A DNA stretch of 64,000 nt, taken from the IMG/VR virus record IMGVR_UViG_3300045988_176129, positions 24,700 through 88,699 of that record. One strand, 5' to 3'. Positions 13,714 through 28,518 of the stretch are shown piece after piece. The translations under genes were made by a program, and so were the position numbers. This stretch comes from a virus. Every line of letters begins with the position of its first letter. Within the stretch, counting starts at the first letter, position 1. The notes under the pieces were generated by a model. It saw only the letters and a list, made by a program, of their open reading frames with translations, had not been told where the DNA came from and searched no databases.

Positions 13714-13843
13714 TTTTCATAAATTAAATATAATAATTGATATTATAAAAAATTTATGATATAATAATTATATAAGATGAAGGAATGTGAAACATTCCCA
13801 TGTAAGTTCCCTTTGCGGTTTTCTTCTTTATCTTATATATTAT

Positions 13844-13981
13844 TCCCTAGTAGCTCAGTTGGTAGAGTGTCTGACTGTGCGGAAATAGTATAAGCAGTAC
13901 GTCTGTAGCCCAGAAGATTTGAGTTCAAATCTCAATTTCCGATTAATCAGAATGTCGTAGGTTCGAGTCCTACCTGGGGAG
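13844..13981 (+). tRNA. tRNA-like gene with GTG-type anticodon loop interrupted by a ~65-72-nt insertion
   Basis: Canonical acceptor, D-arm and T-arm; the anticodon-stem halves (tctga / tcaga) are separated by 72 nt. Confidence 0.4.
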
Positions 13982-14120
13982 CTAGGTTAAGTTATTCATA
14001 GACTCGCCGATTGCAGAAAGTAGGAATGTTGTTATTTAAAATGGTAACACAGTCGCCGAAAGGACTGTCTGTCAGACTCCTTGACGGAGAATAGGAGTAG
14101 AGTTATAAGTGAAGATGATT

Positions 14121-14145
14121 GGAGGTTCGAATCCTTCCCCGCCGA
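14121..14145 (+). other. orphan canonical T-arm plus 3' acceptor-like element (unresolved tRNA or tRNA-like RNA end)
   Basis: ggagg-ttcgaat-ccttc followed by cccgccg; no 5' partner found within 100 nt. Confidence 0.3.
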
Positions 14146-14312
14146 AAAGTGGTGGGCGCGAAAGGAGTGCTAATCGAAGAACTTATTTTAGTTGAAGTAC
14201 AAAGTGTGTTGCAGCATATGGAGTAAATACTAAAGTAACTCGACAAGATTTACTGCAATAAGTCTTGATAGCTTAGTCATCTAATTGGAAGGATGCCACG
14301 GTATGTGGTCAC

Positions 14313-14337
14313 AGAGGTTCGATTCCTCTCTAAGATT
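14313..14337 (+). other. orphan canonical T-arm element (unresolved tRNA-like)
   Basis: agagg-ttcgatt-cctct followed by ctaagat; a possible 5' partner attttag lies 145 nt upstream. Confidence 0.3.
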
Positions 14338-14548
14338 TAGGCTCGGACTTTAACCCCGAGGGTAATAATTAGGGTTATTGCGTACAGAGAGATTGCCGAA
14401 CATTACGTATCCTCACTCTACCTTAACGAGATAAGGTGTAAAGATGTCTATGAAATGTCGTTTGAAAGAGATTTAGAGAGTTCACGAAGTAGCTCACCTT
14501 GTATCTTCAAGTTATGCTTCTTGGGGATATAGACAAAAAGCATTTTAA

Positions 14549-14620
14549 TCCGATTTAGTACAATGGCTAGTACCCTGGCTTTGTAACCCAGTGATAAGTG
14601 TTCGATTCACTTAATCGGAA
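14549..14620 (+). tRNA. tRNA-Thr(TGT)
   Basis: Acceptor tccgatt/aatcgga, D gtac/gtac, anticodon loop tttgtaa, T aagtg-ttcgatt-cactt. Confidence 0.75.
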
Positions 14621-14744
14621 CTTAAAAATCATGCCATAGCGTAAGCAAAAGGTAGTTAGCTCAAAAGTAATAGATATAGGTCAGCCTTTTTACCTGTCTA
14701 TAGGATAGAGTGTTAGTTTTCTAGGTATGTTCTAACGAATAAAT

Positions 14745-14816
14745 GCCGATGTAGTATAATGGTTAGTACACCTGTCTTCCAAACAGGATATGCGAGTTCG
14801 ATTCTCGTCATCGGCT
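14745..14816 (+). tRNA. tRNA-Gly(TCC)
   Basis: Acceptor gccgatg/catcggc, anticodon loop cttccaa, T gcgag-ttcgatt-ctcgt. Confidence 0.8.
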
Positions 14817-14828
14817 TTAAAATAATTT

Positions 14829-14900
14829 GGGGTTATAACTCAATGGAAGAGTAATTGCTTTGCAAGCAATAGGTTGAGAGTTCGAGTCTCTCTGGCTCCA
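14829..14900 (+). tRNA. tRNA-Ala(TGC)
   Basis: Anticodon loop tttgcaa, T gagag-ttcgagt-ctctc, acceptor with G-U pairs. Confidence 0.75.
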
Positions 14901-14903
14901 CCT

Positions 14904-14976
14904 GCGAAAATAGTTCAGTTGGTAGAGCACACGTCTGATACGCGTGAAGTCGATGGTTCAAATCCATCTTTTCGCA
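14904..14976 (+). tRNA. tRNA-Ile(GAT)
   Basis: D-loop agttggtagagc, anticodon loop ctgatac, T gatgg-ttcaaat-ccatc. Confidence 0.8.
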
Positions 14977-14982
14977 TTATAT

Positions 14983-15055
14983 ACTGGTTTAGTTTAATGG
15001 ATAAAATATTTAGCTACGAACTAAAAGAGTATAGGTTCAATTCCTATAACCAGTA
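14983..15055 (+). tRNA. tRNA-Arg(ACG)
   Basis: Acceptor actggtt/aaccagt, anticodon loop ctacgaa, T atagg-ttcaatt-cctat. Confidence 0.75.
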
Positions 15056-15135
15056 TTAAATGTATTTATAATGGTAACTGGCAAACTTATTTGACTTAGA
15101 ATCAAATATTTGAGAGTTTAAATTTTTTAGACGCA

Positions 15136-15164
15136 TTGACAAAAATAAAAATTTTTGTTATAAT
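15136..15164 (+). promoter_or_regulatory. sigma70-type promoter (TTGACA-17-TGnTATAAT) driving a non-coding region
   Basis: ttgaca ... tgttataat. Confidence 0.6.
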
Positions 15165-15300
15165 ATTATTAAGGAAGTTGCGGAAAGAAAACTGTTTAAC
15201 CTTATCAAAAATAAACAAAACTGCTGACCTTATTTCAGTGGAGAATAGGGTATAAAGGAAAATATAAGAGAGAACCCGTGCAGCAACCGGTACGTAAAAT
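15165..15300 (+). ncRNA. candidate small non-coding RNA (no ORF; flanked by promoters)
   Basis: Lies between two promoters; locally GC-richer; contains paired segments gcaaccggtacg...ggttgcccc. Confidence 0.25.
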
Positions 15301-15439
15301 AATGGTTGCCCCTTTAATTTGATATTTTTAAAAATTTTTGATATAATATATATATCAAATAAAAAAGAAAAATACTGAGTTGTCATTCTTCTAAGTATTT
15401 GGATAGTAATAACAAAAGAATGTTCGCTGGATTGGTTAG

Positions 15440-15490
15440 TTGGACTTGAGAATTTTCTCAATTGTGGTTCGATTCCACTTTGACCACTTA
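15440..15490 (+). other. degenerate tRNA-like element (acceptor + anticodon-like arm + T-arm, no D-arm)
   Basis: tggttag ... ttgag-aattttc-ctcaa ... gtgg-ttcgatt-ccac-tttgacca. Confidence 0.25.
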
Positions 15491-15504
15491 TCATAAAACA
15501 ATAT

Positions 15505-15533
15505 TTGACAAAAATAAAATTTTATGATATAAT
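15505..15533 (+). promoter_or_regulatory. sigma70-type promoter upstream of the large non-coding element
   Basis: ttgaca-17-tgatataat. Confidence 0.6.
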
Positions 15534-15634
15534 AATTATATAAGAAATCTTGTCAATGGATTAATTAATAGCATAAGCGCAGAGATGGGTTAGTTATAAT
15601 AGTGAAGAAAGCTAATCAGTTCGCACTTTGATAA

Positions 15635-16291
15635 TTGAATACTTTAGTCAAAATATAATGTAATAACTCAGTGCAGAATGGTGAATTCAGCCATGCTGAG
15701 AAATCTTGAGAAACTCCAGTAACAACCGAAGCAAGGATACTTGCGGATATTGCTGTTTTCTTAATTGTGAAATTAAGAAAAGAAAGGATAGGCTCCAACG
15801 AGTAGAGAGATTGTGCTGTGGGGATTACGGTTTATAGCGTAGGACGTGTCTCGGTGATGGAATAGAGGCGAAGGTTAATAGCTTTCGCTGAATCAAAGTG
15901 AGGGTTTAGCTGGTGACTGTATCAAACCTTTGAAATGCCAATAAATCATTTTGTCGTGATGTTTTAGAAATAGAACTATAAGAGATGCAGATGACCTGAA
16001 AGTAGCCTAAGACAAAATTAAAGAAGAACAATTTTAATTCAAGTTGTATGTAAATGGAAATTACATAAAAGATTGAAAATATTGCTGAAAGTAATGGTGA
16101 AATCTAGGGGTAGTCATTCCCCTCTAAGTTAAGTGAGTTTCGACTCATGGGGTAAAGAAGTACAGACTAGCTATCTGGTTGCTATTTATAGCATTTAACT
16201 CAGCCTTTATCTCCTTAGTTGCGTAATAATAAACAAGTAATACATAGTAAGAGGAAGCTCTATTATAATATATTTTGACTAAAGTATTCAA
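15635..16291 (+). ncRNA. ~650-nt non-coding element bounded by perfect 23-bp inverted repeats (candidate large structured RNA, or MITE-like insertion)
   Basis: ttgaatactttagtcaaaatata at 15635-15657 is the exact reverse complement of 16269-16291; no ORF over 60 aa inside; higher GC than flanks; sits between a promoter and tRNA-Glu. Confidence 0.45.
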
Positions 16292-16300
16292 GATGGCGAT

Positions 16301-16372
16301 GGCGGTATCGTCTAGTGGTTAGGACAGCGGCTTTTCACGCCGCAAACCCGAGTTCAAATCTCGGTACCGTCA
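16301..16372 (+). tRNA. tRNA-Glu(TTC)
   Basis: Acceptor ggcggta/taccgtc, anticodon stem gcggc/gccgc, loop ttttcac, T ccgag-ttcaaat-ctcgg. Confidence 0.8.
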
Positions 16373-16562
16373 CTTTTAAGACTCATCATCTTAAAATGGG
16401 AAGAAATTGCTCCCAATGTAAAGTAATTTGACTTGATATTTCAAGAGGTAAATATCCCTGTATACTAGGAGACGGTATAACAGTTATTTGATGGTTTCTC
16501 TGTTAAAAGAAAAGAATTATTAGGGTTGCAACCTGGTGATGACAAATAGCTATAGTTAATAT

Positions 16563-16635
16563 CGCGAATTGGACAGTATCGGTAGCTGCGTAGCCTCATA
16601 AGCTAATCAGAGGGGTTCGACTCCCCTATTCGCAA
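16563..16635 (+). tRNA. tRNA-Met(CAT), initiator-like (C1-A72 mismatch)
   Basis: Acceptor cgcgaat / attcgca with a C:A mismatch at the top; anticodon loop ctcataa; T agggg-ttcgact-cccct; irregular D-arm. Confidence 0.6.
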
Positions 16636-17035
16636 GCAAAAGTACAATGATTTCATTTTTCCTTTCAGATATGTGTTTGTTGTATTGTACTTTTATATTT
16701 GGTGGTTGGTTTTTTCCAAGAGTTTACCAACTAAAAAACAAAACTTGTTCATATATAGTTCTTTTCATAATAGGCGGAGGAGCCTTTCTTCCGCCTTTAA
16801 TTCTGACTATTATTGAATTTACATATAAATTTCAAAGAAGGAGATTGATATTATGAAAGATAGAGAGTGGGGCAATTAAGTAGGCTAGGAAAAGTAAAAC
16901 ATCAGGTGGGTTTATAATTCCATAGACCTACTTGCCGCAAGTTTAATATTCATTAAGAGATATGAAATATTACTTGAAAAAATAAAAAAATTATAATATA
17001 ATATATGTATAAGATAAAGAAAGGAAATAAGAATT

Positions 17036-17158
17036 ATGACAAATGAAATCAAACTTGCAACATTAAAGAACAGATTGGCTACTATTGAAGCAAAGGGAAA
17101 GAGTACTCCTGGAGTTTTAAGAAAGTTAAGAAGACAGATTCGCTCTCTTGAGCGTTAA
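17036..17158 (+). CDS. 40-aa basic peptide (MTNEIKLATLKNRLATIEAKGKST...)
   Basis: Promoter and RBS aaaggaaat upstream; not in the supplied track because under 60 aa. Confidence 0.4.
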   Translation: MTNEIKLATLKNRLATIEAKGKSTPGVLRKLRRQIRSLER

Positions 17159-17169
17159 TCTGTAAAAAA

Positions 17170-17243
17170 GGGAAATTAGCTTAGTTGGTTAAAGCAGGCG
17201 GCTCATAACCGCAAGAGCCTAGGTTCGAATCCTAGATTTCCCA
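17170..17243 (+). tRNA. tRNA-Met(CAT) (elongator or Ile-lysidine type)
   Basis: Acceptor gggaaat/atttccc, anticodon loop ctcataa, T ctagg-ttcgaat-cctag. Confidence 0.75.
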
Positions 17244-17247
17244 CTAA

Positions 17248-17320
17248 GGATCGTAAGCTAACTTAGTAGAAGCACAAGACTGAAAATCTTGGGGACTTGG
17301 AGCGTAACCAAGACGATCCA
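17248..17320 (+). tRNA. tRNA-Phe(GAA)-like with non-canonical T-loop
   Basis: Perfect acceptor ggatcgt/acgatcc; anticodon stem caaga/tcttg, loop ctgaaaa; T-arm cttgg-agcgtaa-ccaag lacks the TTC. Confidence 0.45.
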
Positions 17321-17486
17321 CTTGGCGGGTAATGCATTTGCCCCACCACCTAGTGCCTAAGCTGGGGAACTTTGGGAAAGATTCTCAATAGTAAAGGATT
17401 AAGACTTTGCAAATTATTAGATGAAATGGGCGATAATCATAAACAGGAACAATTACTTCGCCTCCTGTGGTAATCAAATATTATAT

Positions 17487-17570
17487 GGATGGGTATGTCT
17501 AGTGGCGATGACAGCGGTCTGTAAAACCGTGACGTAAGATACACCGTAGGTTCGACTCCTACCCCATCCA
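17487..17570 (+). tRNA. tRNA-Tyr(GTA), long variable arm
   Basis: Acceptor ggatggg/cccatcc, anticodon loop ctgtaaa, variable arm about 14 nt, T gtagg-ttcgact-cctac. Confidence 0.75.
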
Positions 17571-17768
17571 CTTAGATAAGATAAAAACAGGCGGGAGACG
17601 CGGCTCGCTAGTGAAAAGTCTTTAAGAATGACAAATAAACAAAACATTCAAGCTATATTTCTCTTTGAGACAAGGTACCTCTGAGTTCGCGCTATTGAGG
17701 TTTAAAGCACCGTGCGGTTCCGGAAAAACATAGCAACCTTGGGAGAAATATATCATCTTATCTATTAA

Positions 17769-17850
17769 GTCGAGATGGCGAAATTGGTATACGCGGTAGA
17801 CTCAAACTCTACTCTAGAAATAGTTGTGGGTTCAACTCTCACTCTCGACA
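17769..17850 (+). tRNA. tRNA-Leu(CAA)
   Basis: Acceptor gtcgaga/tctcgac, 3-bp D-stem, anticodon loop ctcaaac, long variable arm, T gtggg-ttcaact-ctcac. Confidence 0.7.
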
Positions 17851-17856
17851 TTATAT

Positions 17857-17939
17857 GCGCCCGTGGTGAAATTGGTAAACACATGAGATTTAAGCTCTCA
17901 CGACTTCGGGTCTTGCGGGTTCGAGTCCCGCTGGGCGCA
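17857..17939 (+). tRNA. tRNA-Leu(TAA)
   Basis: Acceptor gcgcccg/tgggcgc, anticodon loop tttaagc, long variable arm, T gcggg-ttcgagt-cccgc. Confidence 0.75.
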
Positions 17940-18169
17940 CTAAAATTGAGTAGAAAGTTTGGAATCTTTCTAATAAATCTCAACCTGGGTGCTCAATTTT
18001 ATATATAATCTTATGCGCAAAAAGATTAAAGAACAATGGTAAGTTTCCATTACAGAGTATTGCTTTTATATAGAATAATGGATTGGATAAAAGCAATAGA
18101 TGAAATTACAAGAGGTTGATTCTAAACCTTATGGAGCTTGAAATACAGGTACACATAAAAAGAATCATC

Positions 18170-18240
18170 GCGGGTGTAGCTTAATGGGTAGAGCACTTCA
18201 ATGTTAATGGAGGGATGAGGTTCGAATCCTCCGCCCGATC
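18170..18240 (+). tRNA. tRNA-Asn(GTT)-like with irregular acceptor stem
   Basis: D gctt-aatgggta-gagc, anticodon stem cttca/tggag, loop atgttaa, T (t)gagg-ttcgaat-cctcc; the acceptor pairs only with a bulge. Confidence 0.45.
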
Positions 18241-18315
18241 TCTTTATTGATTTTTTATGAATTTTATATTATAATATATATATAAGATATAAGATATAAA
18301 AAGGAGATAAAATAT

Positions 18316-18633
18316 ATGTTTTTTAACATTTGGATAGATGATATGCGGCAACCGCCCCATAAAGATAACTTAGTAGTATTCCGAAATGCAGAATCTGCAA
18401 TAGAATGGTTTGAAAATGAAGAAGAGATAACCTCTAATGACTGCTTTTGTTTATATTTAGACCATGATTTAGGAGAAGGAATGTCTGGATACGACTTCTG
18501 TAAATGGTTTATAGAATGGAACTATAACAAATGTTATGATGCTACTTTTGTATTATTGACAGCTAATCCTGTTGGTAGAAATAATATGCGGCAGCTAATG
18601 ACTCATTATGGCTATGAAGAAAAATATCATTAA
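18316..18633 (+). CDS. receiver (REC)-like domain protein, hypothetical
   Basis: Promoter and RBS aaaaaggagat; DD pair (IWIDDMR), LYLDHDLGEG and T...K positions fit a CheY-like fold. Confidence 0.5.
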   Translation: MFFNIWIDDMRQPPHKDNLVVFRNAESAIEWFENEEEITSNDCFCLYLDHDLGEGMSGYDFCKWFIEWNYNKCYDATFVLLTANPVGRNNMRQLMTHYGYEEKYH

Positions 18634-18772
18634 TGACATTTATTAAAAAATATTATATAATATATATAGACTCACATAGTTTAAGTTAGGAAAACAACCG
18701 AATCCCAGGTAAAAGACCAATATTAAGTTATTGAAGATTTTCAAGCGCAAATCTTGATGTGGGTTCTACTTA

Positions 18773-18857
18773 GCGCGTGTCGCCTAGTGGCTAGGGCAAC
18801 GGACTTTTAATCCGTCGATGTTCAGCATCATCGCAGGTTCAAATCCTGTCACGCGCA
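18773..18857 (+). tRNA. tRNA-Lys(TTT) with an unusual 17-nt variable arm
   Basis: Acceptor gcgcgtg/cacgcgc, D gcct/gggc, anticodon stem acgga/tccgt, loop cttttaa; extra hairpin gatg-ttcagca-catc before T-arm gcagg-ttcaaat-cctgt. Confidence 0.6.
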
Positions 18858-18928
18858 TTGACATATTATAAAAAATATGTTAAAATATTTATATAATGAT
18901 AAGAAAGAAGAAGTCATTATAAAATTTT

Positions 18929-19002
18929 GGCTCTGAGGTGTAACTGGTTTGCATAATACCCTGTCACGGTATAGGTAACGGGTTCAAGTCCCGTCTGAGT
19001 CG
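18929..19002 (+). tRNA. tRNA-Asp(GTC)
   Basis: Anticodon stem atacc/ggtat, loop ctgtcac, T acggg-ttcaagt-cccgt; one U:U in the acceptor. Confidence 0.7.
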
Positions 19003-19115
19003 CTTCACTTAGTAGATTGAAGTCGCGAATATAATATCTACTGAAGAAGATAATAAGTCTATCCGCGGAGATTGTGATAGAAACTGTTATTTTGGCAGAT
19101 AAGTGGACTGCCGTT

Positions 19116-19188
19116 TGTCCTAGGGGTCAGGTTGGTTCTGATGCAGGTCTGCAAAACCTGAGAAGTGAGTTCAAATCTCACCAAGGAC
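19116..19188 (+). tRNA. tRNA-Cys(GCA)
   Basis: Anticodon stem caggt/acctg, loop ctgcaaa, T gtgag-ttcaaat-ctcac, discriminator U. Confidence 0.65.
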
Positions 19189-19451
19189 TTAACAATAGTT
19201 CATTTGTATTGTTGAGGAGTAACGACCCTTGACCTAGCTGTGGTAGCTAGAGGAACGAAAAAATAACCATATTAATATTTTATAAGTAAATTTAATAATA
19301 AGCGAAAAACCCGGTGACATGATTTCCTGCTTCTGTAAGCTGAAGGGAAACAAAAAGATGTGAATTACAGATATGCTTATTATAAAAATGCAGTTTGTGT
19401 TCTAATTACGTTCTAATTATAGGGTTATTGAAAGTAAAATATTAATATTAT

Positions 19452-19539
19452 GCCGTCTTACTCAAGTTTGGTTGAAGAGGTCGCATTGCTAACGCGATAG
19501 GCTGTAACAGGTGCGGAGGTTCAAATCCTCCAGACGGCG
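19452..19539 (+). tRNA. tRNA-Ser(GCT)
   Basis: Perfect acceptor gccgtct/agacggc, 3-bp D-stem, loop ttgctaa, long variable arm, T ggagg-ttcaaat-cctcc, discriminator G. Confidence 0.7.
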
Positions 19540-19578
19540 CTTATACTTATAAGAAATTGTTTGTAATTTCATAATAAT

Positions 19579-19652
19579 ATCTCGGTAAAGATAATTGGAA
19601 ATCGCTTGGTCTCCAAAACCATAGTACCTGGGTTCGATTCCTAGCTGAGATG
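19579..19652 (+). tRNA. tRNA-Trp(CCA)
   Basis: Acceptor atctcgg/ctgagat, anticodon loop ctccaaa, T ctggg-ttcgatt-cctag; weak D-stem. Confidence 0.55.
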
Positions 19653-19917
19653 TTTTCTTCCTTTGTAATTCATAGAGAAGATATGATGATCGCCTAACTG
19701 GATAAAGGTTATAATACCAGTACATAAAGGGTAATCCAAGTAACCGAAAATGGGAGATAACCTGTGTGACGTTTATTGTTTACGTCTTAAAATAATATGA
19801 CGAGTTTTATAGTCTTTTAGCGATGACAAGCAAAGAGTGCGGCAGCTGACTTTTATAGCAGTTAGCCTAGAGTGGTGCGTTGGCGGCTTGAGCCAATAGT
19901 CAAAATCAAGCATATAT

Positions 19918-19989
19918 TGGGTTATCGCCAAATGGTAAGGCAGCGGGTTTTGATCCCGCGATTTGCAGGTTCGAGTCCTGCTAGCCCAG
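19918..19989 (+). tRNA. tRNA-Gln(TTG)
   Basis: Acceptor tgggtta/tagccca, anticodon stem gcggg/cccgc, loop ttttgat, T gcagg-ttcgagt-cctgc. Confidence 0.75.
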
Positions 19990-20000
19990 TTTATAAATAT

Positions 20001-20085
20001 GCCGAGGTACCTTAGTGGGGAGGAGGCGTTGTCTTGAAAACAATCGTCCTTCACGGGACTGGGAGTTCGAATCTCTCCCTCGGCG
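20001..20085 (+). tRNA. tRNA-Ser(TGA)
   Basis: Acceptor gccgagg/cctcggc, loop cttgaaa, long variable arm, T gggag-ttcgaat-ctctc. Confidence 0.75.
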
Positions 20086-20087
20086 CT

Positions 20088-20160
20088 GTGACATTAGTTC
20101 AGTTGGTAGAACATTGGATTGTGGTTCCAAATGTCGTGAGTTCAAGTCTCACATGTCACC
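20088..20160 (+). tRNA. tRNA-His(GTG) without an encoded G-1
   Basis: Acceptor gtgacat/atgtcac, D gttc-agttggta-gaac, loop ttgtggt, T gtgag-ttcaagt-ctcac, discriminator C; base -1 is T. Confidence 0.75.
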
Positions 20161-20272
20161 TTTTTATCACATATATTAGCTAAGGACGTAAAAATAAAAA
20201 GCAAAAAGTTAAAGAATAGATGAAGAAATATAATGCTGATGTAGAGTTTAATGGAACAGGAGAAATTATAAA

Positions 20273-21238
20273 ATGAGAAAAATAACAGAAACACATACAG
20301 GAAAGATTGTAACTGATACAGATTTAACTCTTGAATATTTATATGTTGGTGATTATGGAAAAGAGAATAATATTAAGGCATCATTTCTTGGATATGATAA
20401 AAGAATTGATAAGGTAGAGCATAAACCTGTAGATATTACTGATAAGCTTGTAGTGACTGTATCTTCACAAAAAGGTTGTCCTATGAATTGCAATTTCTGT
20501 GACTGTCCTAAACTTGGATTTAAAGGTAATGCAACTTTGCCAGAGTTGATTACGGAAATTATGTCAGGTGTTGCTTTATCTGGAATTAAGCATGGACAAA
20601 GATTGAATGTACATTATGCAAGAATGGGTGAACCAACATTTAATCCAAATGTTATTACATCGGCAAAGTTTATTGCGCAAATGTTAATGAGTGAAAATTC
20701 AGATGTAACTTTTGATACATACCATCCTGTAGTGTCTACTATGATGCCAAAATCAAATAAAAACCTTAAAGAGTTTTTACATAAATGGATAACAACTGGA
20801 TTTGTATATGGCGGAGAGGATGGTTTTGGATTACAGTTTTCTATAAATACTCTTAATGAGAATGATAGAAATGAAATGTTCAGAAACAGGTCTTTATCAT
20901 TGCAGGAAATTAGTAATATTATCAAAGAACTTCCTTATCCGAAGAAGAGAAAATATACATTAAATTTTGCGGTTACTTCCAAGAGTAATCTTAATGTAGA
21001 CCTTATGAACAAATATTTTGATAAGAAGAAATGCATTGTTAAAATGACGCCAATTCATGAGACTGTTGAAGCTGTTGATGAAGGATATGAAATTGTGCAT
21101 GATTTTGATGTATATGAGCAGTTTGAGCAGCCACTTGTAAATGATGGATGGGATGTAATTGTCTTTGTTCCCTCAAAAGAGGAAGATGAGGACAGAATTA
21201 CATGTGGAAATTCGTTAATTGCATTAGGAAACAAGTAA
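20273..21238 (+). CDS. radical SAM enzyme, RlmN/Cfr-like (candidate rRNA/tRNA adenosine C2 methyltransferase)
   Basis: VSSQKGCPMNCNFCDC has the CxxxCxxC cluster inside a vSSQxGC...C.FC context typical of RlmN; a C-terminal ITCGNS may hold the second catalytic Cys. Confidence 0.55.
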   Translation: MRKITETHTGKIVTDTDLTLEYLYVGDYGKENNIKASFLGYDKRIDKVEHKPVDITDKLVVTVSSQKGCPMNCNFCDCPKLGFKGNATLPELITEIMSGVALSGIKHGQRLNVHYARMGEPTFNPNVITSAKFIAQMLMSENSDVTFDTYHPVVSTMMPKSNKNLKEFLHKWITTGFVYGGEDGFGLQFSINTLNENDRNEMFRNRSLSLQEISNIIKELPYPKKRKYTLNFAVTSKSNLNVDLMNKYFDKKKCIVKMTPIHETVEAVDEGYEIVHDFDVYEQFEQPLVNDGWDVIVFVPSKEEDEDRITCGNSLIALGNK

Positions 21239-21276
21239 CAAGAATCGCTCATTTCTTATGAAATTTTGGAGGTAAT

Positions 21277-21681
21277 ATGAAGAAAAGAATTAAGGAAATA
21301 TGTGAAAAATTAGATGGAGATATTTATGGGAAGGGTTGTAATTTCTTAGAAAACGAAGATGATGATGAAATACCTACATTTTACAGTAGAGATGATTGTC
21401 ATTCTATATCTTTTAGAGAACTATTATTATGGTACTTGCCAAGGTTGGGAAGTTGGCAAGATGGGCCAGATTGTAATGATTGTGATTGTAAGGATTGTGA
21501 TGATTTTAGGCATATAAAAAACTGTAGAAAGATGGTTTTGGATGAGCAGATTAAGAAAAGACACTATGAGTTATTTCTTGAACTTGTTGACATTTATGCT
21601 TATTACACGCAGCAAGATCATATAAAGTATAGACAATTAAAAGAAAAGTGTAAAAGTGTTTTAAGAGAAATTATGGAGTAA
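21277..21681 (+). CDS. Cys-rich hypothetical protein
   Basis: GPDCNDCDCKDCDD cluster; RBS ggaggt. Confidence 0.5.
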   Translation: MKKRIKEICEKLDGDIYGKGCNFLENEDDDEIPTFYSRDDCHSISFRELLLWYLPRLGSWQDGPDCNDCDCKDCDDFRHIKNCRKMVLDEQIKKRHYELFLELVDIYAYYTQQDHIKYRQLKEKCKSVLREIME

Positions 21682-21684
21682 AAT

Positions 21685-22263
21685 ATGTCAAATTTATATG
21701 TATATCTAATGTGCTCTCGTAACAAGGATAATAAAGATATTCCAAATTTTAAGGAACGAGCCAAGACAATTCTTGAGTATAAAGAGAATGAAGATAAAGT
21801 AGTCGAAGCTTTTAAAAGTTTTGCAGCTGAAGGAATTCCTAGCGAACAGACAAGGTTATACAGGTCAGTTAATTCAAGAAATGAAGAAAAAATCAGAGAA
21901 GAATTTATTATTCGTCTGTTAAAAGATAAGCCAAGTATGACACAGCTTAATCGCACATTAGCTTCAGTTGCACAACAGGTACAAAATCGTGATGAAAGTA
22001 AATGGCTGTTTGATTTTGATGTGGATGATGATAAATTGACAGAAGATTTCAAAAAAGACATTAAAAAATTCGCATATGATAACAGTGGTATATTCTTTTG
22101 CGATTATGAAATAGAAGTTCACAAGACTCCTCATGGCTATGCGATTGTAGTACCGCATGGTTTCGGCATAAGAGAATTGGTGGAAAAGTGGAAAGATTAT
22201 GATGTTACATTGAAAAGAGATGGGTTGTTGTTTTTGGATATGATAACGAATGAGCGAGGTTAA
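21685..22263 (+). CDS. hypothetical protein
   Basis: 192-aa ORF tightly packed with neighbours. Confidence 0.55.
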   Translation: MSNLYVYLMCSRNKDNKDIPNFKERAKTILEYKENEDKVVEAFKSFAAEGIPSEQTRLYRSVNSRNEEKIREEFIIRLLKDKPSMTQLNRTLASVAQQVQNRDESKWLFDFDVDDDKLTEDFKKDIKKFAYDNSGIFFCDYEIEVHKTPHGYAIVVPHGFGIRELVEKWKDYDVTLKRDGLLFLDMITNERG

Positions 22264-22267
22264 ATGA

Positions 22268-22597
22268 ATGAATAAAAAGTATATTCCACAAATAGGAGAT
22301 GTTGTTTTTGATAATAATATCCCTATGGTTGTAGTAACTATGAAAAGCTATGAGGATGCTGGAAGTTGCAGTTATGATAGGAAATATTTTTTGTGTGAAG
22401 AGGAATATTTTCATAAGTTAAGTGAATGTATGACAACAATGGATGCAATGGGTGAACATGGTAGATGGGTTCAAGTTAAGGGAACAGAATTTCCTAATAT
22501 TAAACAGGTTATGGATATTGCACCATATGAAATTATTCCAATTCAAGGATTTCGTATAAGACAAAAAAAGGCAAAAATGATAACAATTTATGAGTAA
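22268..22597 (+). CDS. hypothetical protein
   Basis: Intact ORF. Confidence 0.5.
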   Translation: MNKKYIPQIGDVVFDNNIPMVVVTMKSYEDAGSCSYDRKYFLCEEEYFHKLSECMTTMDAMGEHGRWVQVKGTEFPNIKQVMDIAPYEIIPIQGFRIRQKKAKMITIYE

Positions 22598-22615
22598 ATA
22601 ATTATAACTTATTAT

Positions 22616-22912
22616 TTGTTAAAAAGAAAGGAATTAGATATGAAAAAGAAAATAGCAGCGATTGCCGCACTTTTAGTATTAAGCTTTTGTCTAAGTGGTT
22701 GTCAAGAAATTACTAGGAATTATGGTGGAACAACAGAAATAGACCTTGAACCAGGACTAAAACTTGAAGAAATAACTTGGAAAGACGATGATCTTTGGTA
22801 TCTTACAAGACCAATGACAGATGAAGATATTGCGGAAACACATACTTTTGAAGAAAGTTCTCTTTGGGGCATTTGTGAAGGAACGGTTATTATAAGAGAG
22901 CATAAGAAGTAA
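22616..22912 (+). CDS. lipoprotein
   Basis: Signal peptide with lipobox LSGC. Confidence 0.6.
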   Translation: MLKRKELDMKKKIAAIAALLVLSFCLSGCQEITRNYGGTTEIDLEPGLKLEEITWKDDDLWYLTRPMTDEDIAETHTFEESSLWGICEGTVIIREHKK

Positions 22913-22916
22913 TTAC

Positions 22917-22957
22917 AAGCGAGTGATATAAAAAATCACTCGCTTTTTTGTGCATTT
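22917..22957 (+). terminator. Rho-independent terminator
   Basis: gcgagtgat-loop-atcactcgc followed by tttttt. Confidence 0.7.
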
Positions 22958-23086
22958 AAGAGATTGGGCTGAAGACTAGCGTAATTGCAAATTAAAAATA
23001 GACTTTGGAAATTTTGTTTTTACTTTTGGTCATATTAAATTAATTTGATATATTTAAACTAGATATTTATAAAAAGGAGGTTCTTT

Positions 23087-23458
23087 ATGGCTTTATATAT
23101 AAATAATAAACAAACTGGAGAAATTTCTCAAATTGCAGGAATTCAAGCAGTAGATGAATTATTAAATGAAGAATCCATTAATCCAGTTCAAAATAAAACT
23201 ATTACAGCTAAATTAAAAGATATAAATAAAATTATTGATGAAGTAAAAAAATCTGTCAGTGATGGCAAATCTAAGGTTGCCTTGGCTATCACTGAGAAAG
23301 GCGTAAACACAGAGGCAACAGATATATTTGACACGATGGCGAAGAATATTGGGAAAATACAAACAGGTACATCGAATACACCGATATTAAGCACAACAAT
23401 GACATCCGATATTGTACAATGCCGAGTGACACACGAAATAGATAATACATTGGATTAA
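23087..23458 (+). CDS. tail-associated protein with conserved N-terminal module (paralog 1 of 3)
   Basis: RBS aaaggaggt; N-terminus KSKVALAITEKGVNTEATDIFDTMAKNIGKIQTG is shared with 23981 and 28979. Confidence 0.6.
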   Translation: MALYINNKQTGEISQIAGIQAVDELLNEESINPVQNKTITAKLKDINKIIDEVKKSVSDGKSKVALAITEKGVNTEATDIFDTMAKNIGKIQTGTSNTPILSTTMTSDIVQCRVTHEIDNTLD

Positions 23459-23472
23459 AGGAGGAAGTATGT

Positions 23473-23964
23473 ATGTTAACAAATAATTTCGCTGGTCTTG
23501 TCAGCCTAAACTGTCAACTGGGTTCAGGCAATTATACTGTGTGTAAAACCACAGAAAATAAAACAGCTAGTGCAAGTTACTCTTGGTTTAGACAGCTGCT
23601 TGGTGCATCGTTGCTTTTAAAAAATGTGTCTAGCTCAGCCACAACCGGAGTTTATATAGTGTTAGGAACAGGCACAACACCAGCAACAGCGGCAGATATA
23701 AAGCTTGAAAATGTGACAGAGGACTATGAAATCCTCACGCAAACTAAAGATATACCGCAAACATTTTCAAGTTCCATCATAACTATTACCAGAGTCATAC
23801 GAAATACAGGCAATGCGCCACTAACCATATCAGAAGTAGGGTTATATGCTAGCTATACAGGCGCCTTCACAGGAGCAATAATGTTAGCACGTGAGGTCAT
23901 TGAGCCGGTAACATTACAACCCGGCGAGAAGCACTCGTTCACAATGGATTTGTGTGTAGAATAG
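23473..23964 (+). CDS. hypothetical structural protein
   Basis: RBS aaggagg. Confidence 0.55.
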   Translation: MLTNNFAGLVSLNCQLGSGNYTVCKTTENKTASASYSWFRQLLGASLLLKNVSSSATTGVYIVLGTGTTPATAADIKLENVTEDYEILTQTKDIPQTFSSSIITITRVIRNTGNAPLTISEVGLYASYTGAFTGAIMLAREVIEPVTLQPGEKHSFTMDLCVE

Positions 23965-23980
23965 AAAAGGGCTGATAAAT

Positions 23981-24370
23981 ATGGCATTATATAAAAATGA
24001 TTTACTAACAGGAAAATTAAATCTTTTAGCTGGCACTTCCGCAATAGATAAGGTCTTTAATGAAAATAGTAATAATCCTATTGAAAATAAAGTTATTACT
24101 ATAAAAATAAAAGAAATAGAGCAAAGCTTTGAAGAAACAAAACAAACAGTTCAAGAAGGAAAAGAAAAAATTGCAAATTCCATTACTAATAAAGGGATAG
24201 AGACAAATTCTTCAGACACCTTTGACACAATGTCTCAAAATATAAATAAAATAACTGGTAGTATAAAAAACTATGGAATCAGCATAAATACATCTCTATA
24301 TGTAAACCCTCTTGGATATGTAACAAGCATATATGGAATACTACCAATAGAAAGTGAGGAGATAAGCTGA
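23981..24370 (+). CDS. tail-associated protein with conserved N-terminal module (paralog 2)
   Basis: KEKIANSITNKGIETNSSDTFDTMSQNINKITG. Confidence 0.6.
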   Translation: MALYKNDLLTGKLNLLAGTSAIDKVFNENSNNPIENKVITIKIKEIEQSFEETKQTVQEGKEKIANSITNKGIETNSSDTFDTMSQNINKITGSIKNYGISINTSLYVNPLGYVTSIYGILPIESEEIS

Positions 24371-25119
24371 TGGGATATAATATACAAAGAATAAGGCTGG
24401 GGAAAAAAGAAGCTGACTCTACGTATTACAATGCGGATATAAATGACACAAAAATGCAGGAGATTGCGTCAACCCTTGGCATGAAACTAAATATTGTAGA
24501 GTCTAATACTACGTGGATATTATACATGGGAGATGATGAACACAATACAACAGGTTATAGATTTCGTTTCGCTTCACCTAGATTATATATGGAGACTGTA
24601 ATTCAGGGGGTGACCCCTTCTACATCTGGATATTTTTTTTCATATAGTGTGGATTTAACAAGATCAGCCACGTCTAATGCGGCTAATGCATTTTTACATT
24701 TTATATCATGTAAAGAAGGAGTAGTATTCGGAATTGGAAACATTAGCGAGGGAGCTAACATTACTGATTTATTACATATCGTATTGCCTGCAAAAAATCT
24801 AAAAACAAATGAAGACAGAATAGCTTATATGTCATTCACTTCTGCTAGATACATCATTTATTCTGATGTAGATGAGACATCTTATTATGCTCAATCTTGG
24901 AGCCAGGAAAGCAGCATACATGACGTGGTAAGTCTTGCTCAATATGTATATCCTGCAGAATATCTCGTTATTCCATCAGCATATTATGTAATGGCTGGAC
25001 CGAATGTTGCGTCAGGTGCTTCTGGTGAAAGTTTTATTATAAATGACCAAGAGTATTTCATTCCAGGCAATACAAGCTCAATTTGGAGAATAGCAATAGA
25101 ACTGCCAAAAGCAGAATAA
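24370..25119 (+). CDS. hypothetical structural protein
   Basis: Start/stop overlap with the upstream gene. Confidence 0.55.
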   Translation: MGYNIQRIRLGKKEADSTYYNADINDTKMQEIASTLGMKLNIVESNTTWILYMGDDEHNTTGYRFRFASPRLYMETVIQGVTPSTSGYFFSYSVDLTRSATSNAANAFLHFISCKEGVVFGIGNISEGANITDLLHIVLPAKNLKTNEDRIAYMSFTSARYIIYSDVDETSYYAQSWSQESSIHDVVSLAQYVYPAEYLVIPSAYYVMAGPNVASGASGESFIINDQEYFIPGNTSSIWRIAIELPKAE

Positions 25120-25178
25120 ATAAATATTGATTTTTAATAAAATTTTTGTTATAATATAATAAAGAAAGGAGATATATT

Positions 25179-25397
25179 ATGACAAAAAAAGAAAAATTAA
25201 AGATAGAAGAAAGAGCGAAAAAATATAAATGTGATGGTATTTGTTACTGGACAACTGGCATGTGTCCTCTAGTAGAAACTTGCCCTGAAACAAGAGATAA
25301 AGAATGGAGAGCAACTTTATACACATTATTAACTATAGGACTTGTCCCGATTGGAATAGTTATAGGAATTATTTTAGCGTTTTTTAATCTCATTTGA
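25179..25397 (+). CDS. small membrane protein
   Basis: Own promoter; C-terminal transmembrane segment. Confidence 0.5.
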   Translation: MTKKEKLKIEERAKKYKCDGICYWTTGMCPLVETCPETRDKEWRATLYTLLTIGLVPIGIVIGIILAFFNLI

Positions 25398-25486
25398 CTT
25401 TTAAAAAAATTTTTGTTATAATATATATAGAAAGTTGAGAAAGGAATCAACTTAAAAAATTTTTTCATAAAAAGGAGTATGAAATT

Positions 25487-25822
25487 ATGAAGTTTTATAG
25501 TGAAGTAACAAAGAAGCTCTATGATACTGAGGCAGATCTTAATGATGCAGAAAATGCTATTAAGAAGGCTGAGTGTGAAAAGAAGGCAAGAGAGACCAAG
25601 TTAAAGAACGAACGTGCGGCAAGAGCTAAGGTAGTAGATGCAGCATTTGAAGATTATCGGAAAGCTAAGGAAATAGCTAAGAAGAAGTATTCTGATGCTA
25701 ATGCTTTACTCGATGCTTTTGTGAAAGATTATGGTACTTATCATGTATCTATTTCAGAGAAGAATAAGCGTGCTGATGATTTCGATGAATTGTTCTCTGA
25801 GTTGATAAATTCTTTATTCTAA
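25487..25822 (+). CDS. Lys/Ala-rich coiled-coil protein
   Basis: Promoter and RBS aaaaggagt. Confidence 0.5.
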   Translation: MKFYSEVTKKLYDTEADLNDAENAIKKAECEKKARETKLKNERAARAKVVDAAFEDYRKAKEIAKKKYSDANALLDAFVKDYGTYHVSISEKNKRADDFDELFSELINSLF

Positions 25823-25896
25823 TTTATATAAAAAATTATTTAGACACTTTTAAATTCATTATTATTTAAAAATGTCAATATAATTTTTTATTAATA

Positions 25897-25933
25897 AAGT
25901 GCAAACATTTAAAAGTGTTTGCACTTTTTTTTA
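25897..25933 (+). terminator. Rho-independent terminator
   Basis: aagtgcaaacac-loop-gtgtttgcactt followed by tttttttt. Confidence 0.7.
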
Positions 25934-25982
25934 ATTTAATATATTTTACTTTCTAATATTAATATATAAGGAGGGAAATAAA

Positions 25983-26162
25983 ATGATAAACATATTAAAA
26001 AATGGCAACAATCCTAGCAAATATGTTATGGAATATATAGCTGATACAGAAGATGATATTAAAAGTCTTACTACAAATGTAACTCCAGGAAGTATATGTC
26101 TAGTAATAGAAACCGCAGAAGTTTATATGATAAATGGAAACCATGAATGGAAAAAGCTTTAA
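25983..26162 (+). CDS. 59-aa hypothetical protein
   Basis: RBS taaggaggg; not in the supplied track. Confidence 0.45.
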   Translation: MINILKNGNNPSKYVMEYIADTEDDIKSLTTNVTPGSICLVIETAEVYMINGNHEWKKL

Positions 26163-26174
26163 GGAGGGATATAG

Positions 26175-27179
26175 ATGGATATAACGACTTATGTCTTACT
26201 TAAAAAGAAAATTGATTCATTGGGAATTAGCGACAAAAAAATTCAAGAAGTAATTGAATCTTTCCTGTTAGCACATCCTGAATATATTGGGGCAACAGCA
26301 GAGCAAGATGCTTTAATTAAGGCAAATGCCGCAGCCATTTTAGAGCTTCAAGCGGATGATATTGAGATTCTTACTCTTGATGAGTACAATGCTTTACCAG
26401 AAGAAGATAAAACAAAGAAAAATTATTTAATTTGGGATAGTGATAGTAGTTCTATAACTATTGATTCTGAATTAAATATTAATAGTTCTAACCCTATATC
26501 TAATAAAATTGTAACAAAAGAAATAGAAAGTATAAAATCTCATATTTTATTAGAAGAAGATAGCAACATTATTAATATGTATACCTTAGATGAAAATAAT
26601 ACTCAAATAAAAAATGAGAATCCTTTCTTATCTTTAGTAGGTGGAACTTACGAACGTTTAGAGTTATATGGAGATAGGTTAGTAGGAAAGCAAGCCGCTA
26701 GTACAGCTACTTTTAATGGCAATGGAATTTCTATTATTAGCCGAACAGGCAATGCGGAATATGGCAGTTCAAAAATTCAATTAAATACTAGTGGAAAAAT
26801 TATAAAGCTAGAGAATGGAGCAATCTCAACAACAGACACTATAACTTCTCAAACTGATTTTGTAATATCCAATGCTACAAAAAATATCTCTCTTTCAGGT
26901 TTAAGCGATGACTTAAATAATAAAATGAATACAACAGATATTCAATATGGAACGATAGAATTGGAATATATTTCAGAGGATATTTTATATGGAGAAAAAA
27001 TATTAGACAAAGATATTCATGGGGCAACTGTTTCTTTAATTTCAAAATCAGATACCAAACATCTTAATGTAACTAATTTAAGTATGAATTGTATAAGTAA
27101 GACATTAAAAATTACTGCAACTGGTTCAAGTTTTGTTAGTGGAGATACTGTTGCGGTTTCATATATAGCTATTATATAG
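26175..27179 (+). CDS. tail fibre-like protein
   Basis: RBS aaggaggg; Ser/Thr/Asn-rich beta-rich sequence. Confidence 0.55.
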   Translation: MDITTYVLLKKKIDSLGISDKKIQEVIESFLLAHPEYIGATAEQDALIKANAAAILELQADDIEILTLDEYNALPEEDKTKKNYLIWDSDSSSITIDSELNINSSNPISNKIVTKEIESIKSHILLEEDSNIINMYTLDENNTQIKNENPFLSLVGGTYERLELYGDRLVGKQAASTATFNGNGISIISRTGNAEYGSSKIQLNTSGKIIKLENGAISTTDTITSQTDFVISNATKNISLSGLSDDLNNKMNTTDIQYGTIELEYISEDILYGEKILDKDIHGATVSLISKSDTKHLNVTNLSMNCISKTLKITATGSSFVSGDTVAVSYIAII

Positions 27180-27258
27180 GGATGATTTATTTCATCCCTA
27201 TTTTTTATTTGACTTTTTTTATTTTTTATGATATAATTAAAACAAGGAGGAATAATAT

Positions 27259-28518
27259 ATGGTGGATGAAGAAAAGAAGATTCCTGACCCAATAGATATT
27301 GATGGAATCCAAATTGGAGAAGATAGATTTAGAATTAAATCTAATTTAGACTTAAATAGAAGAGAAAATAGTATAATAGGATTAAATAGTGTAGCAAGAT
27401 CACCAGAAAAGGAAGTTATTGCTGCTGATGGACAAGATCCCCAAGATGCAACTGCAATAGCTTCCGGAATTGGCTCTTATGCATTAGGGCCTGGCGCAAT
27501 CGCCCAAGGACATTATTCATTCGCAATTGGGTCTGGCGCTAATGCAGTTGGGAATGATAGCTTTTGTCATGCTGCTTTTGGGGTATATGGAAATAACCCA
27601 ACGGCTAGTTTAATAAATCATTATCCATATGGAAGGGCTCTTGGAGAAGGATCTGTTTCTTTTAATAGAGGCGGGGCACTCGCAGATTATTCATTTGCGG
27701 AGGGTGTTGCTCGAGCTGGGACTGCTGGTTCAGCAACAACTGATGGTGGCCTGTATTCTCATGCAGAGGGCGCTTCTCAAACTAGAGGAGACTATTCTCA
27801 TGCAGAAGGATCAGGAATTGCAGAAGGAATGTATTCTCATGCAGAAGGTGCTGGCAGAGCTGGGGGAGATTATTCTCATGCAGAAGGATCGGGAGTAGGA
27901 GTTCTTATAGATGCCCCATATGCAAAAGGAAATTCTTGTCATGCTGAAGGAATAGGAACTTTTGCTAATGGATATGCCTCTCATGCAGAAGGATATGGCT
28001 CAATAGCAAACGGATATTATTGTCATGCGCAAGGACAGTTTTCTCAAGCAGGGGGAGAAAAAGAAGATACTAATTTTTTAAAAAATGTTAACTGTACTGC
28101 TATCGGACAACAAGTTATAGCAAAAGGTAAAAATACTACTGTATTTGGAGATCACACGGCTGCAGTAGAAGATAATCAATTTGTAATAGGTAAATGGAAT
28201 ATTCCTAAAACGAATACAGCTTTTATTGTCGGTGGAGGAACCAGCGAAACTGACGAGAAAAAAAATATTTTAGAATTTGATTGGAATGGAAATTTATGGA
28301 TTAATGGTAGTTTTAGCTATGGGGAGGATAATAAACCTATAGATTTTAATAATTATTATACAAAAACAGAAAGCGATGAAAAATTTTCAACAAAAGAAGA
28401 AGTTAAAAACAAATTATTGCCTTCTGTATCTACTTCAGATAACGGAAAGATTCTTATGGTTGAAAATGGAGCCTGGACAGCGACTGTTATCGTTAATTCA
28501 GAGGAGGTAGCTTATTAA
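27259..28518 (+). CDS. tail fibre protein with tandem G-x-YSHAEG repeats
   Basis: At least six YSHAEG/CHAEG/SHAEG repeats spaced about 10-20 aa apart; Gly-rich. Confidence 0.6.
   Translation: MVDEEKKIPDPIDIDGIQIGEDRFRIKSNLDLNRRENSIIGLNSVARSPEKEVIAADGQDPQDATAIASGIGSYALGPGAIAQGHYSFAIGSGANAVGNDSFCHAAFGVYGNNPTASLINHYPYGRALGEGSVSFNRGGALADYSFAEGVARAGTAGSATTDGGLYSHAEGASQTRGDYSHAEGSGIAEGMYSHAEGAGRAGGDYSHAEGSGVGVLIDAPYAKGNSCHAEGIGTFANGYASHAEGYGSIANGYYCHAQGQFSQAGGEKEDTNFLKNVNCTAIGQQVIAKGKNTTVFGDHTAAVEDNQFVIGKWNIPKTNTAFIVGGGTSETDEKKNILEFDWNGNLWINGSFSYGEDNKPIDFNNYYTKTESDEKFSTKEEVKNKLLPSVSTSDNGKILMVENGAWTATVIVNSEEVAY

Follow-up and report, generated by a model that had tools for sequence, protein, structure and literature searches.

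What does a radical S-adenosylmethionine (SAM) enzyme do for a phage when its gene lies directly behind an array of tRNA genes? The question is raised by a 64,000-nucleotide stretch of viral DNA, positions 24,700 to 88,699 of the IMG/VR record IMGVR_UViG_3300045988_176129, which is referred to here as the window. An open reading frame (ORF) on its plus strand, at 20273–21238, starts with ATG and encodes a radical-SAM protein of 321 amino acids with an RlmN/Cfr-like fold, a member of the phage protein family PHROG 24834. A sequence-only reading had described this ORF as a shortened RlmN/Cfr-like enzyme, with a CxxxCxxC cluster in a VSSQxGC...C.FC context, that might modify position 37 of the phage tRNAs or act on rRNA; ORF and motif are as described there. 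RlmN is a dual-specificity radical-SAM methyltransferase that forms m2A2503 in 23S rRNA and m2A37 in tRNA, and Cfr is the 23S rRNA m8A2503 methyltransferase associated with antibiotic resistance. The reading favoured here, with a probability of roughly 0.45, is a different one: because of the contexts in which relatives of the gene occur in nicotinamide adenine dinucleotide (NAD) metabolism, the fusions in which they take part and the parts of RlmN that have been lost, the protein may be a small-molecule radical-SAM enzyme linked to NAD+ and nicotinamide/nicotinate (Preiss-Handler) metabolism, and not an enzyme of tRNA or rRNA.

The protein matches PHROG 24834 over its full length (phrog_24834, E 4.2e-79, 267 bits, residues 9–316 on positions 11–322 of a 336-position profile) and so belongs to a distinct, mostly phage-borne clade, whose members abound in the viromes of gut and rumen. 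It comprises 6,593 clusters at 90% identity that match with E ≤0.001, of which the top 120 are all at least 98% identical and include one found on 168 contigs; at 50% identity there are 693 clusters. At least 561 IMG/VR viral contigs carry a member, and the 290 stretches located in species-representative genomes lie mainly on contigs of gut or rumen metagenome-assembled genomes (MAGs) with very mixed taxonomic labels. Among isolated phages, Bacteroides phage Versailles encodes a copy with 46% identity (WAK79139.1, 'radical SAM domain-containing protein'), and distant copies are found in Vibrio, Salmonella (Arash), Yersinia and Aeromonas phages and in a crAss-like phage; viral predicted structures include similar short COG0820-like proteins, for example in the Pseudomonas jumbo phage 201phi2-1. 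Source databases label the members differently, as '23S rRNA (adenine2503-C2)-methyltransferase' at JGI and as 'Fe-S-oxidoreductase' or 'radical SAM protein' at NCBI, and searches for publications that connect radical-SAM enzymes with phages, with RlmN or with NAD salvage yielded no description of the family. The methyltransferase label is contradicted by the evidence that follows and could be misread as Cfr-like resistance potential.

In both sequence and fold, RlmN and Cfr are the closest characterised relatives of the window protein. The cluster motif C69-x3-C73-x2-C76 (codons at 20477–20500, plus strand), a [4Fe-4S]/SAM motif that aligns with RlmN C125, C129 and C132, sits within 'VVTVSSQKGCPMNCNFCDC', which pairs residue for residue with 'TLCVSSQVGCALECKFCST' of Escherichia coli RlmN. 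The best match among curated NCBIfam models is RlmN (TIGR00048, E 1.3e-11, 44 bits), followed by Cfr, and RlmN chains in the PDB are matched by sequence at E 1e-7. When a family profile built from 34 members was compared with E. coli RlmN by hhalign, the RlmN core, residues 110–363, aligned to residues 54–319 of the window protein with a probability of 98.4% and E 6e-15. An AlphaFold (AF2) model computed on the family alignment has a mean predicted local distance difference test score (pLDDT) of 92.5 and a predicted template modelling score (pTM) of 0.91, and a Foldseek search with it returned RlmN-type chains as all ten of the best PDB matches (E 1e-11 to 3e-9, TM about 0.6, 0.63 at the value recorded); the next radical-SAM enzyme was SuiB, at E 4e-4. 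Best matches to QueE or to an anaerobic activase, the outcome that the sequence-only reading had named as counting against it, did not arise: QueE matched at E 0.007–0.04 and NrdG at E 0.12, far more weakly than RlmN and Cfr. The general radical-SAM model of Pfam, PF04055, gives 23.6 bits (E 6.7e-5), below its gathering score of 29.5 bits, and some close relatives hold a precomputed match to it; fold and profile place the protein in the superfamily despite the sub-threshold score.

Kinship of this kind is not orthology, and the window protein is not an RlmN/Cfr orthologue. Its 44 bits with TIGR00048 compare with a cut-off of 290, its 31.9 bits with NF008396 with a cut-off of 633, and its 26–28 bits with the Cfr models with cut-offs of 468–550, which leaves it about 6-fold (RlmN) to about 20-fold (Cfr) under the curated thresholds of these hidden Markov models (HMMs). 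The RlmN and Cfr models match residues 46–136 only, and the HMM and profile alignments begin at RlmN model position 92 or residue 110. The protein is indeed a shortened version, as had been noted: 53 N-terminal residues, predicted to form a beta-rich segment of three short strands and one short helix, stand where RlmN has 109, and the accessory N-terminal RNA-binding domain of RlmN is missing. Of the earlier assignment, nearest characterised kinship is thus retained, and identity as RlmN or Cfr is given up on account of the scores, the N-terminal domain and a cysteine equivalent to RlmN C118.

That cysteine is revealing when the whole family is surveyed. Across 476 distinct family sequences aligned to the family HMM, C69, C73 and C76 are invariant or nearly so. 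The column of C118, the resolving cysteine of RlmN, holds a cysteine in none of the 476: the phage clade has threonine, which in the window protein is T62 (codon at 20456–20458, plus strand; placed by pairwise and profile alignments), and distant members have isoleucine, asparagine, methionine or leucine. The methyl-carrier cysteine of RlmN, C355, does have an equivalent: C311 in 'ITCGNS' aligns with RlmN 'AACGQL', the C-terminal 'CG[NQ]' motif formed by C311 and G312 (codons at 21203–21208, plus strand) corresponds to RlmN C355-G356 by hhalign, and nearly all complete family sequences have a cysteine there. In RlmN, mutation of C118 leaves the enzyme arrested in a covalent adduct with its RNA, and PDB entries 5HR6 and 5HR7, which are among the best structural matches, are this trapped form, C118A RlmN cross-linked to tRNA. 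With no C118 equivalent, canonical ping-pong methylation cannot turn over as it does in RlmN. The clade carries an added cysteine of its own, C78 in 'FCDC' (codon at 20504–20506, plus strand), two residues past the cluster motif; it is a cysteine in 390 of the 433 sequences at 40% identity or above and valine in 41, and the same column holds alanine or valine in the distant subfamily.

If the protein is not RlmN, the company that its relatives keep offers a lead to its substrate, and Preiss-Handler NAD+ salvage is the recurrent genomic context of the family. When 149 proteins encoded beside homologues at 55 dereplicated loci were scanned against Pfam, the list of the 25 most frequent families was headed by NAD_synthase (4), CTP_transf_like (4) and the N, C and catalytic domains of NAPRTase (3 each), with NUDIX (3), NrtR_WHD (2) and isochorismatase (2) also recurring; the phage-common families N6_N4_Mtase (4), AAA and DNA_methylase (3) rank beside them. 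The cassette that emerges consists of PncB (NAPRTase), a PncA-like isochorismatase, the radical-SAM protein, NadE, DUF5662 or NadD, PncC (CinA), the regulator NrtR (Nudix plus winged helix) and the NAD kinase NadK. PncB and NadE exceed their NCBIfam equivalog cut-offs (443 bits against 297, and 195 against 64). For the small isochorismatase, nicotinamidase is the best NCBIfam match, at scores below the cut-off, in two of three cassette copies (the sole match at locus L013, and again at L094), and the copy at L006 has no NCBIfam match. When HMMs built from the neighbour clusters were applied to 173 radical-SAM loci, 16 had at least two cassette genes. In these 16 the cassette genes always lie on the strand of the radical-SAM gene, in seven different gene orders, and in 11 of them at a gap of 100 nt or less, as in the arrangement PncA, 6 nt, radical-SAM gene, 11 nt, NadE. 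Their radical-SAM proteins are 41% to 98% identical to that of the window, and their sources range from ruminant-gut 'Alphaproteobacteria' MAGs through Patescibacteria and Peregrinibacteria contigs to IMG/VR viral contigs. One operon, PncB-PncA-rSAM-NadE-DUF5662-NrtR (rSAM denoting the radical-SAM gene), sits on a 283-kb contig with genes for LysR, HxlR and a tyrosyl-tRNA synthetase, and is probably cellular. On the viral side, L094 encodes PncA-DUF5662-PncB-NadD-NadE 2.8 kb downstream of a radical-SAM copy 98% identical to the one studied here. The window itself encodes a NAD-dependent DNA ligase, a consumer of NAD+, which is counted in favour of the NAD reading.

The viral cassette is worth recording in its own right. 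At L094 it occupies 11814–15465 of IMGVR_UViG_3300032007_000029, and L006 and L140–L143 also carry it, as PncA-DUF5662-PncB-NadD-NadE or as PncA-PncB. DUF5662 (PF18907) repeatedly accompanies it.

Gene fusions among bacterial relatives likewise direct attention to small molecules. In two proteins from Bacilli and other Firmicutes (P0134 and P0142), the S-component of an energy-coupling factor (ECF) transporter, the radical-SAM domain and a PNP_UDP_1 domain form one chain. Two others (P0139 and P0163) consist, as called, of S-component and radical-SAM domain; P0163 runs past the latter into nucleosidase-like sequence, and a separate PNP_UDP_1 ORF then follows at its locus, L178. These fusion genes sit in ordinary bacterial chromosomes. 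The best Pfam match of the S-component is QueT, which exceeds its gathering score in two of the four fusions, and the PNP_UDP_1 domain of P0142 is a methylthioadenosine/S-adenosylhomocysteine (MTA/SAH) nucleosidase by equivalog (224 bits against a cut-off of 169), an enzyme that clears 5'-deoxyadenosine and SAH. A distant subfamily, with 25–28% identity and an 'SNCGQ' C-terminus, includes fusions of the radical-SAM protein with a hydrolase of the isochorismatase family, seen in Elusimicrobiota. It also includes a three-gene arrangement at 4510–6936 of L090 (GCA_900174595.1, FWPV01007313.1), where the genes for an isochorismatase, a Pyr_redox_2 flavoprotein and the radical-SAM protein overlap at their ends and apparently form an operon. 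Apart from the fusions themselves, the contexts of the isochorismatase and transporter fusions gave no pathway clue. Judged from these architectures, a membrane component for substrate capture and amidohydrolase partners would be unexpected for an enzyme that modifies RNA.

The QueT-like fusions suggested a lead of a more particular kind. QueL of Clostridioides difficile (Yuan et al. 2019, as cited in PMC11570991 and PMC11130926) is a radical-SAM queuine lyase whose gene has those of an ECF S-component and of a nucleosidase for neighbours. The window protein could accordingly be pictured as a QueL analogue in the salvage of queuosine precursors, converting queuine to preQ1 and feeding position Q34 of the Asn, Asp, His and Tyr tRNAs or a 7-deazaguanine modification of DNA. 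Three bacterial homologues whose N-terminal S-component has QueT as its best Pfam match mirror the C. difficile QrtT-QueL-QueK cluster, and the window array has all four Q-type tRNAs, with the radical-SAM gene following tRNA-His. Several results nevertheless make this proposal very unlikely. QueL (Q186P0) falls under IPR006638, the Elp3/MiaB/NifB-like group, and not with the RlmN type, a comparison made by label (PMC11130926 Table S6); no preQ1 or other riboswitch was detected with Rfam upstream of the fusion genes; and no TGT, DpdA, QueC, QueD, QueE, QueF or QueK was present among the 25 Pfam families listed for the window proteome or the 25 listed for the 149 neighbours. The fused MTA/SAH nucleosidase is bona fide and would serve any radical-SAM enzyme, and niacin or some other compound is just as plausible a cargo of the S-component. 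The lead, prompted by the QueT and nucleosidase fusions, was demoted on the InterPro label and the missing riboswitches.

How well, then, does a NAD-linked small-molecule role hold up? A number of points weigh against it. The association with NAD genes is one of context and concerns about 9% of loci; the majority of copies lie far from any NAD gene, and the 64-kb window, out of a genome of roughly 140 kb, contains no NAD-salvage gene. The neighbour counts stand without a matched background set, and in large phages auxiliary genes are inclined to cluster anyway. No missing step that would need a radical enzyme is known in the Preiss-Handler pathway. The isochorismatase fused in Elusimicrobiota is not specifically PncA-like, and the neighbourhoods of the distant bacterial subfamily contain no NAD genes. 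The remaining points concern RNA: the only characterised homologues act on it, the phage is rich in tRNA-related genes (21 tRNAs, Thg1, PTH2, an RNA ligase and a cREC_REC protein), some relatives lie near tRNA arrays, RtcB or RNA ligases, and in the phage clade C78 might take over the role of the absent resolving cysteine.

Taken together, the RNA-related points make up the case for a trimmed RlmN/Cfr-type adenine C-methyltransferase acting on A37 of tRNA or A2503 of 23S rRNA, of phage or host, for a purpose such as tuning decoding or shielding tRNAs from anticodon nucleases. To them can be added that RlmN and Cfr are the nearest characterised kin by HMM, profile-profile and fold comparison alike, that the methyl-carrier motif 'CG[NQ]' is kept, and that the gene follows an array of 21 tRNA genes (13638–20160), of which the last, tRNA-His(GTG) at 20088–20160 on the plus strand (ARAGORN), ends 112 nt 5' of it. 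The adjacency does not extend to the relatives: 18 of 53 genome-derived loci and just 8 of 80 viral loci have a tRNA gene within 6 kb of the homologue, the latter including the closest relatives, with 65–98% identity. The position beside the array is incidental and not conserved, and tRNA linkage was dropped as a guide to function after the comparison over these 53 and 80 loci. For the phage clade C78 is in principle a conceivable substitute for the resolving cysteine, but the valine that 41 members of the clade have there argues that it is not essential, and the C118 column stays empty of cysteine throughout. The missing N-terminal domain and the scores far under the cut-offs count against an RNA methylase as well, and an RNA substrate fits poorly with the transporter and hydrolase fusions and with the NAD operons. 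The isoelectric points of family members, 5.3–9.0, do not discriminate between an RNA and a small-molecule substrate. On this evidence an RNA methylase is unlikely, and the suggestion that the enzyme acts on phage tRNA position 37 or on rRNA finds no support, since the tRNA adjacency is not kept and the C118 equivalent is missing.

A third polynucleotide, DNA, has also to be considered, as RlmN-type chemistry targets C2 or C8 of adenine, and the enzyme might C-methylate or otherwise modify adenine, whether in a nucleotide precursor or in the phage DNA itself, as a protection from host nucleases. The Versailles homologue is located in a replication/recombination module, DNA methyltransferases are among the commoner neighbours (the N6_N4_Mtase and DNA_methylase families counted above), and they flank the radical-SAM gene at L175 and L094. 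DNA methylases are, however, common in phages generally, and the clustered neighbours include no conserved glycosylase, transferase or deoxynucleoside monophosphate (dNMP) kinase partner. The problem of the missing cysteine is the same as for RNA, and the cellular copies in NAD operons and the transporter fusions would be left unexplained. DNA modification or anti-restriction is highly improbable.

Returning to the small-molecule reading, a mechanism can be sketched from the motifs and the fold. C69, C73 and C76 would ligate a [4Fe-4S] cluster, at which reductive cleavage of SAM would generate a 5'-deoxyadenosyl radical, and C311 may be an active-site residue that serves as methyl carrier or else as hydrogen-atom donor or thiyl site. 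Methyl transfer by the RlmN ping-pong route would be barred in the form known from RlmN, as the canonical resolving cysteine is lacking. The gene would act as an auxiliary or counter-defence gene together with PncA, PncB, NadD and NadE of host or phage, and the phage would be expected to benefit through its NAD+ supply. A more specific proposal is tentative and on the doubtful side: the enzyme could catalyse a novel radical-SAM step in nicotinamide/nicotinate salvage, either recovering a usable pyridine from a modified or otherwise unusable form or modifying a NAD-related molecule, and gut and rumen phages would spread it as a single-gene cassette that sustains the NAD+ supply, possibly in the face of NAD+-depleting defence systems. 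Anti-phage defence has one of its principal fronts in NAD+ metabolism. Should the NAD link be real, a radical-SAM enzyme joins NAD+ salvage in phages and bacteria, and the proposal, if true, would add a new enzymatic component to phage NAD+ counter-defence. The RlmN scaffold would then also have been turned to chemistry other than that of RNA, in a new type of reaction for this fold that relies on one catalytic cysteine and no RNA domain.

Mobility of the gene as a unit can be read from its closest copies. Three viral contigs (L093, L094 and L150) encode a protein 98% identical to that of the window, and each gives a single blastn match to it, at 20247/8–21273 with 94.3–94.6% nucleotide identity, between flanks that are unrelated. 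The shared block, 20248–21273 on the plus strand, is gene-sized and common to otherwise unrelated phage contigs: it contains the radical-SAM gene with 25 nt upstream and 35 nt downstream. That copies so similar match only over this block shows that the gene has recently been exchanged between phage backbones, as a self-sufficient single-gene cassette. The upstream part of the block includes, as read from the sequence, a Shine-Dalgarno-like AGGAGA at 20258–20263 (plus strand), 9 nt 5' of the ATG, within the stretch common to the other phages. Base composition shows no sign of recent transfer, the G+C content being 31.9% for the gene and 31.7% for the window. The neighbourhoods have little in common: when all neighbours were clustered over 86 loci, the commonest neighbour family occurred in 10 only. 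A megablast search of window positions 20000–40000 against the phage-record collection gave no match.

Downstream of the gene lie four small co-directional ORFs (21277–22912, plus strand), encoding a 134-residue Cys-rich protein, a 192-residue member of phrog_8839, a 109-residue protein and a 98-residue lipoprotein-like member of phrog_12728; a terminator scan places a terminator-like hairpin that closes this group at 22917–22945. The radical-SAM gene probably heads a short transcription unit with these four ORFs. PHROG and Pfam scans of the four yielded families of unknown function only, none of them occurs in a neighbour cluster common to the other genome, phage-record or assembly loci that were clustered, and a PADLOC scan of the radical-SAM gene and three of the downstream ORFs indicated no defence system. 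The first ORF (21277–21681, plus strand), which adjoins the radical-SAM gene on its 3' side, contains the Cys/Asp-rich stretch 'GPDCNDCDCKDCDD' and has no Pfam, PHROG or PADLOC match.

Other features of the window and of related loci deserve mention. Within the tRNA array, between tRNA-Asn and tRNA-Lys, an ORF at 18316–18633 (plus strand) encodes a 105-residue cREC_REC protein ('cyclic-phosphate processing receiver'; Pfam PF20274, 71.8 bits; phrog_1479), and the cREC_REC domain is associated with RNA-repair systems. The Pfam scan of the window also detected a set of proteins for the upkeep of tRNA and other RNA, comprising a Thg1 protein (tRNA-His guanylyltransferase-like, E 6e-30), a PTH2 peptidyl-tRNA hydrolase (E 1e-20), an RNA ligase with a PHA02142 OB domain, an AAA_33 kinase-like protein and two Metallophos_2 phosphoesterases, together with gyrase A and B, the NAD-dependent DNA ligase, ThyX, RNase H and a DenV-like pyrimidine-dimer glycosylase. 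The array and the DNA upstream of it contain, on the plus strand, three sigma-70 promoters that agree perfectly (12/12) with the consensus (13583–13611, 15136–15164 and 15505–15533; TTGACA-17-TATAAT, extended by TG), along with several 11/12 sites; promoter-like sites number 61, against 44.8 ± 7.4 expected. Further along, tail-fibre-like ORFs at 23087–25119 precede a 443-residue protein (28979–30310, plus strand) with BspA-type leucine-rich repeats (LRR_5, E 1.7e-10), which may be a host-recognition protein. Among the homologous loci, large phage contigs (L083 2553–3719 and L086 12166–16960) combine the homologue, within about 8 kb, with genes for a T4 Rnl1-type RNA ligase and a second RNA ligase, RtcB, an ATP-dependent DNA ligase, a reverse transcriptase and a nucleoside deoxyribosyltransferase. 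Two phage-like loci (L035 1406–4280 and L077 180–3508) have suppressor-type tRNAs (CTA, TTA) beside a tRNA array, which suggests stop-codon-recoded phages.

How the protein relates to known systems can now be set out. With PHROG 24834 it shares a match over the full length of the profile, and the family is annotated as of unknown function. Phage pathways of NAD+ reconstitution are described as NARP1 (Adps and Namat) and NARP2 (Nampt and Nmnat) (10.1101/2024.02.11.579819) and NARP3 (PnuC and NadR) (PMC13464706); neither of these two papers mentions a radical-SAM enzyme or a PncA/NadE route. Like NARP1–3, the sets of genes in or beside which the radical-SAM relatives occur are mobile phage gene sets that would rebuild NAD+, but they are made up of PncA, PncB, NadD, NadE, PncC, NrtR and NadK, and the pairs that define NARP1–3 were not encountered in them. 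QueL resembles the family in being a radical-SAM enzyme that acts on an imported heterocyclic base, and its gene neighbourhood has the architecture that P0134 and P0142 show in fused form; it differs in its InterPro radical-SAM type, and the PHROG 24834 family is accompanied neither by preQ1 riboswitches upstream of the fusion genes nor by Q-pathway families among those listed. Cfr (PDB 9P0P) has in common with the window protein the class A fold and the cysteine-motif context, picked up by weak HMM matches, whereas these matches are weaker than those to RlmN, the window protein is without the same cysteine and N-terminal domain, and nothing observed points to a part in resistance. The likeness is greatest with RlmN (E. 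coli P36979; PDB 3RFA, 5HR7) and extends to the radical-SAM core fold, the 'SSQxGCxxxCxFC' context, the 'MGEP..N' and 'S(I/L)(N/H)' SAM-binding motifs and the C-terminal 'CG(Q/N)' common to both. Identity is nevertheless confined to 16–20%, the position of C118 is occupied by threonine, the N-terminal domain is present only in RlmN, and the contexts of the PHROG 24834 family are those of NAD salvage and of transporter and hydrolase fusions, not of RNA.

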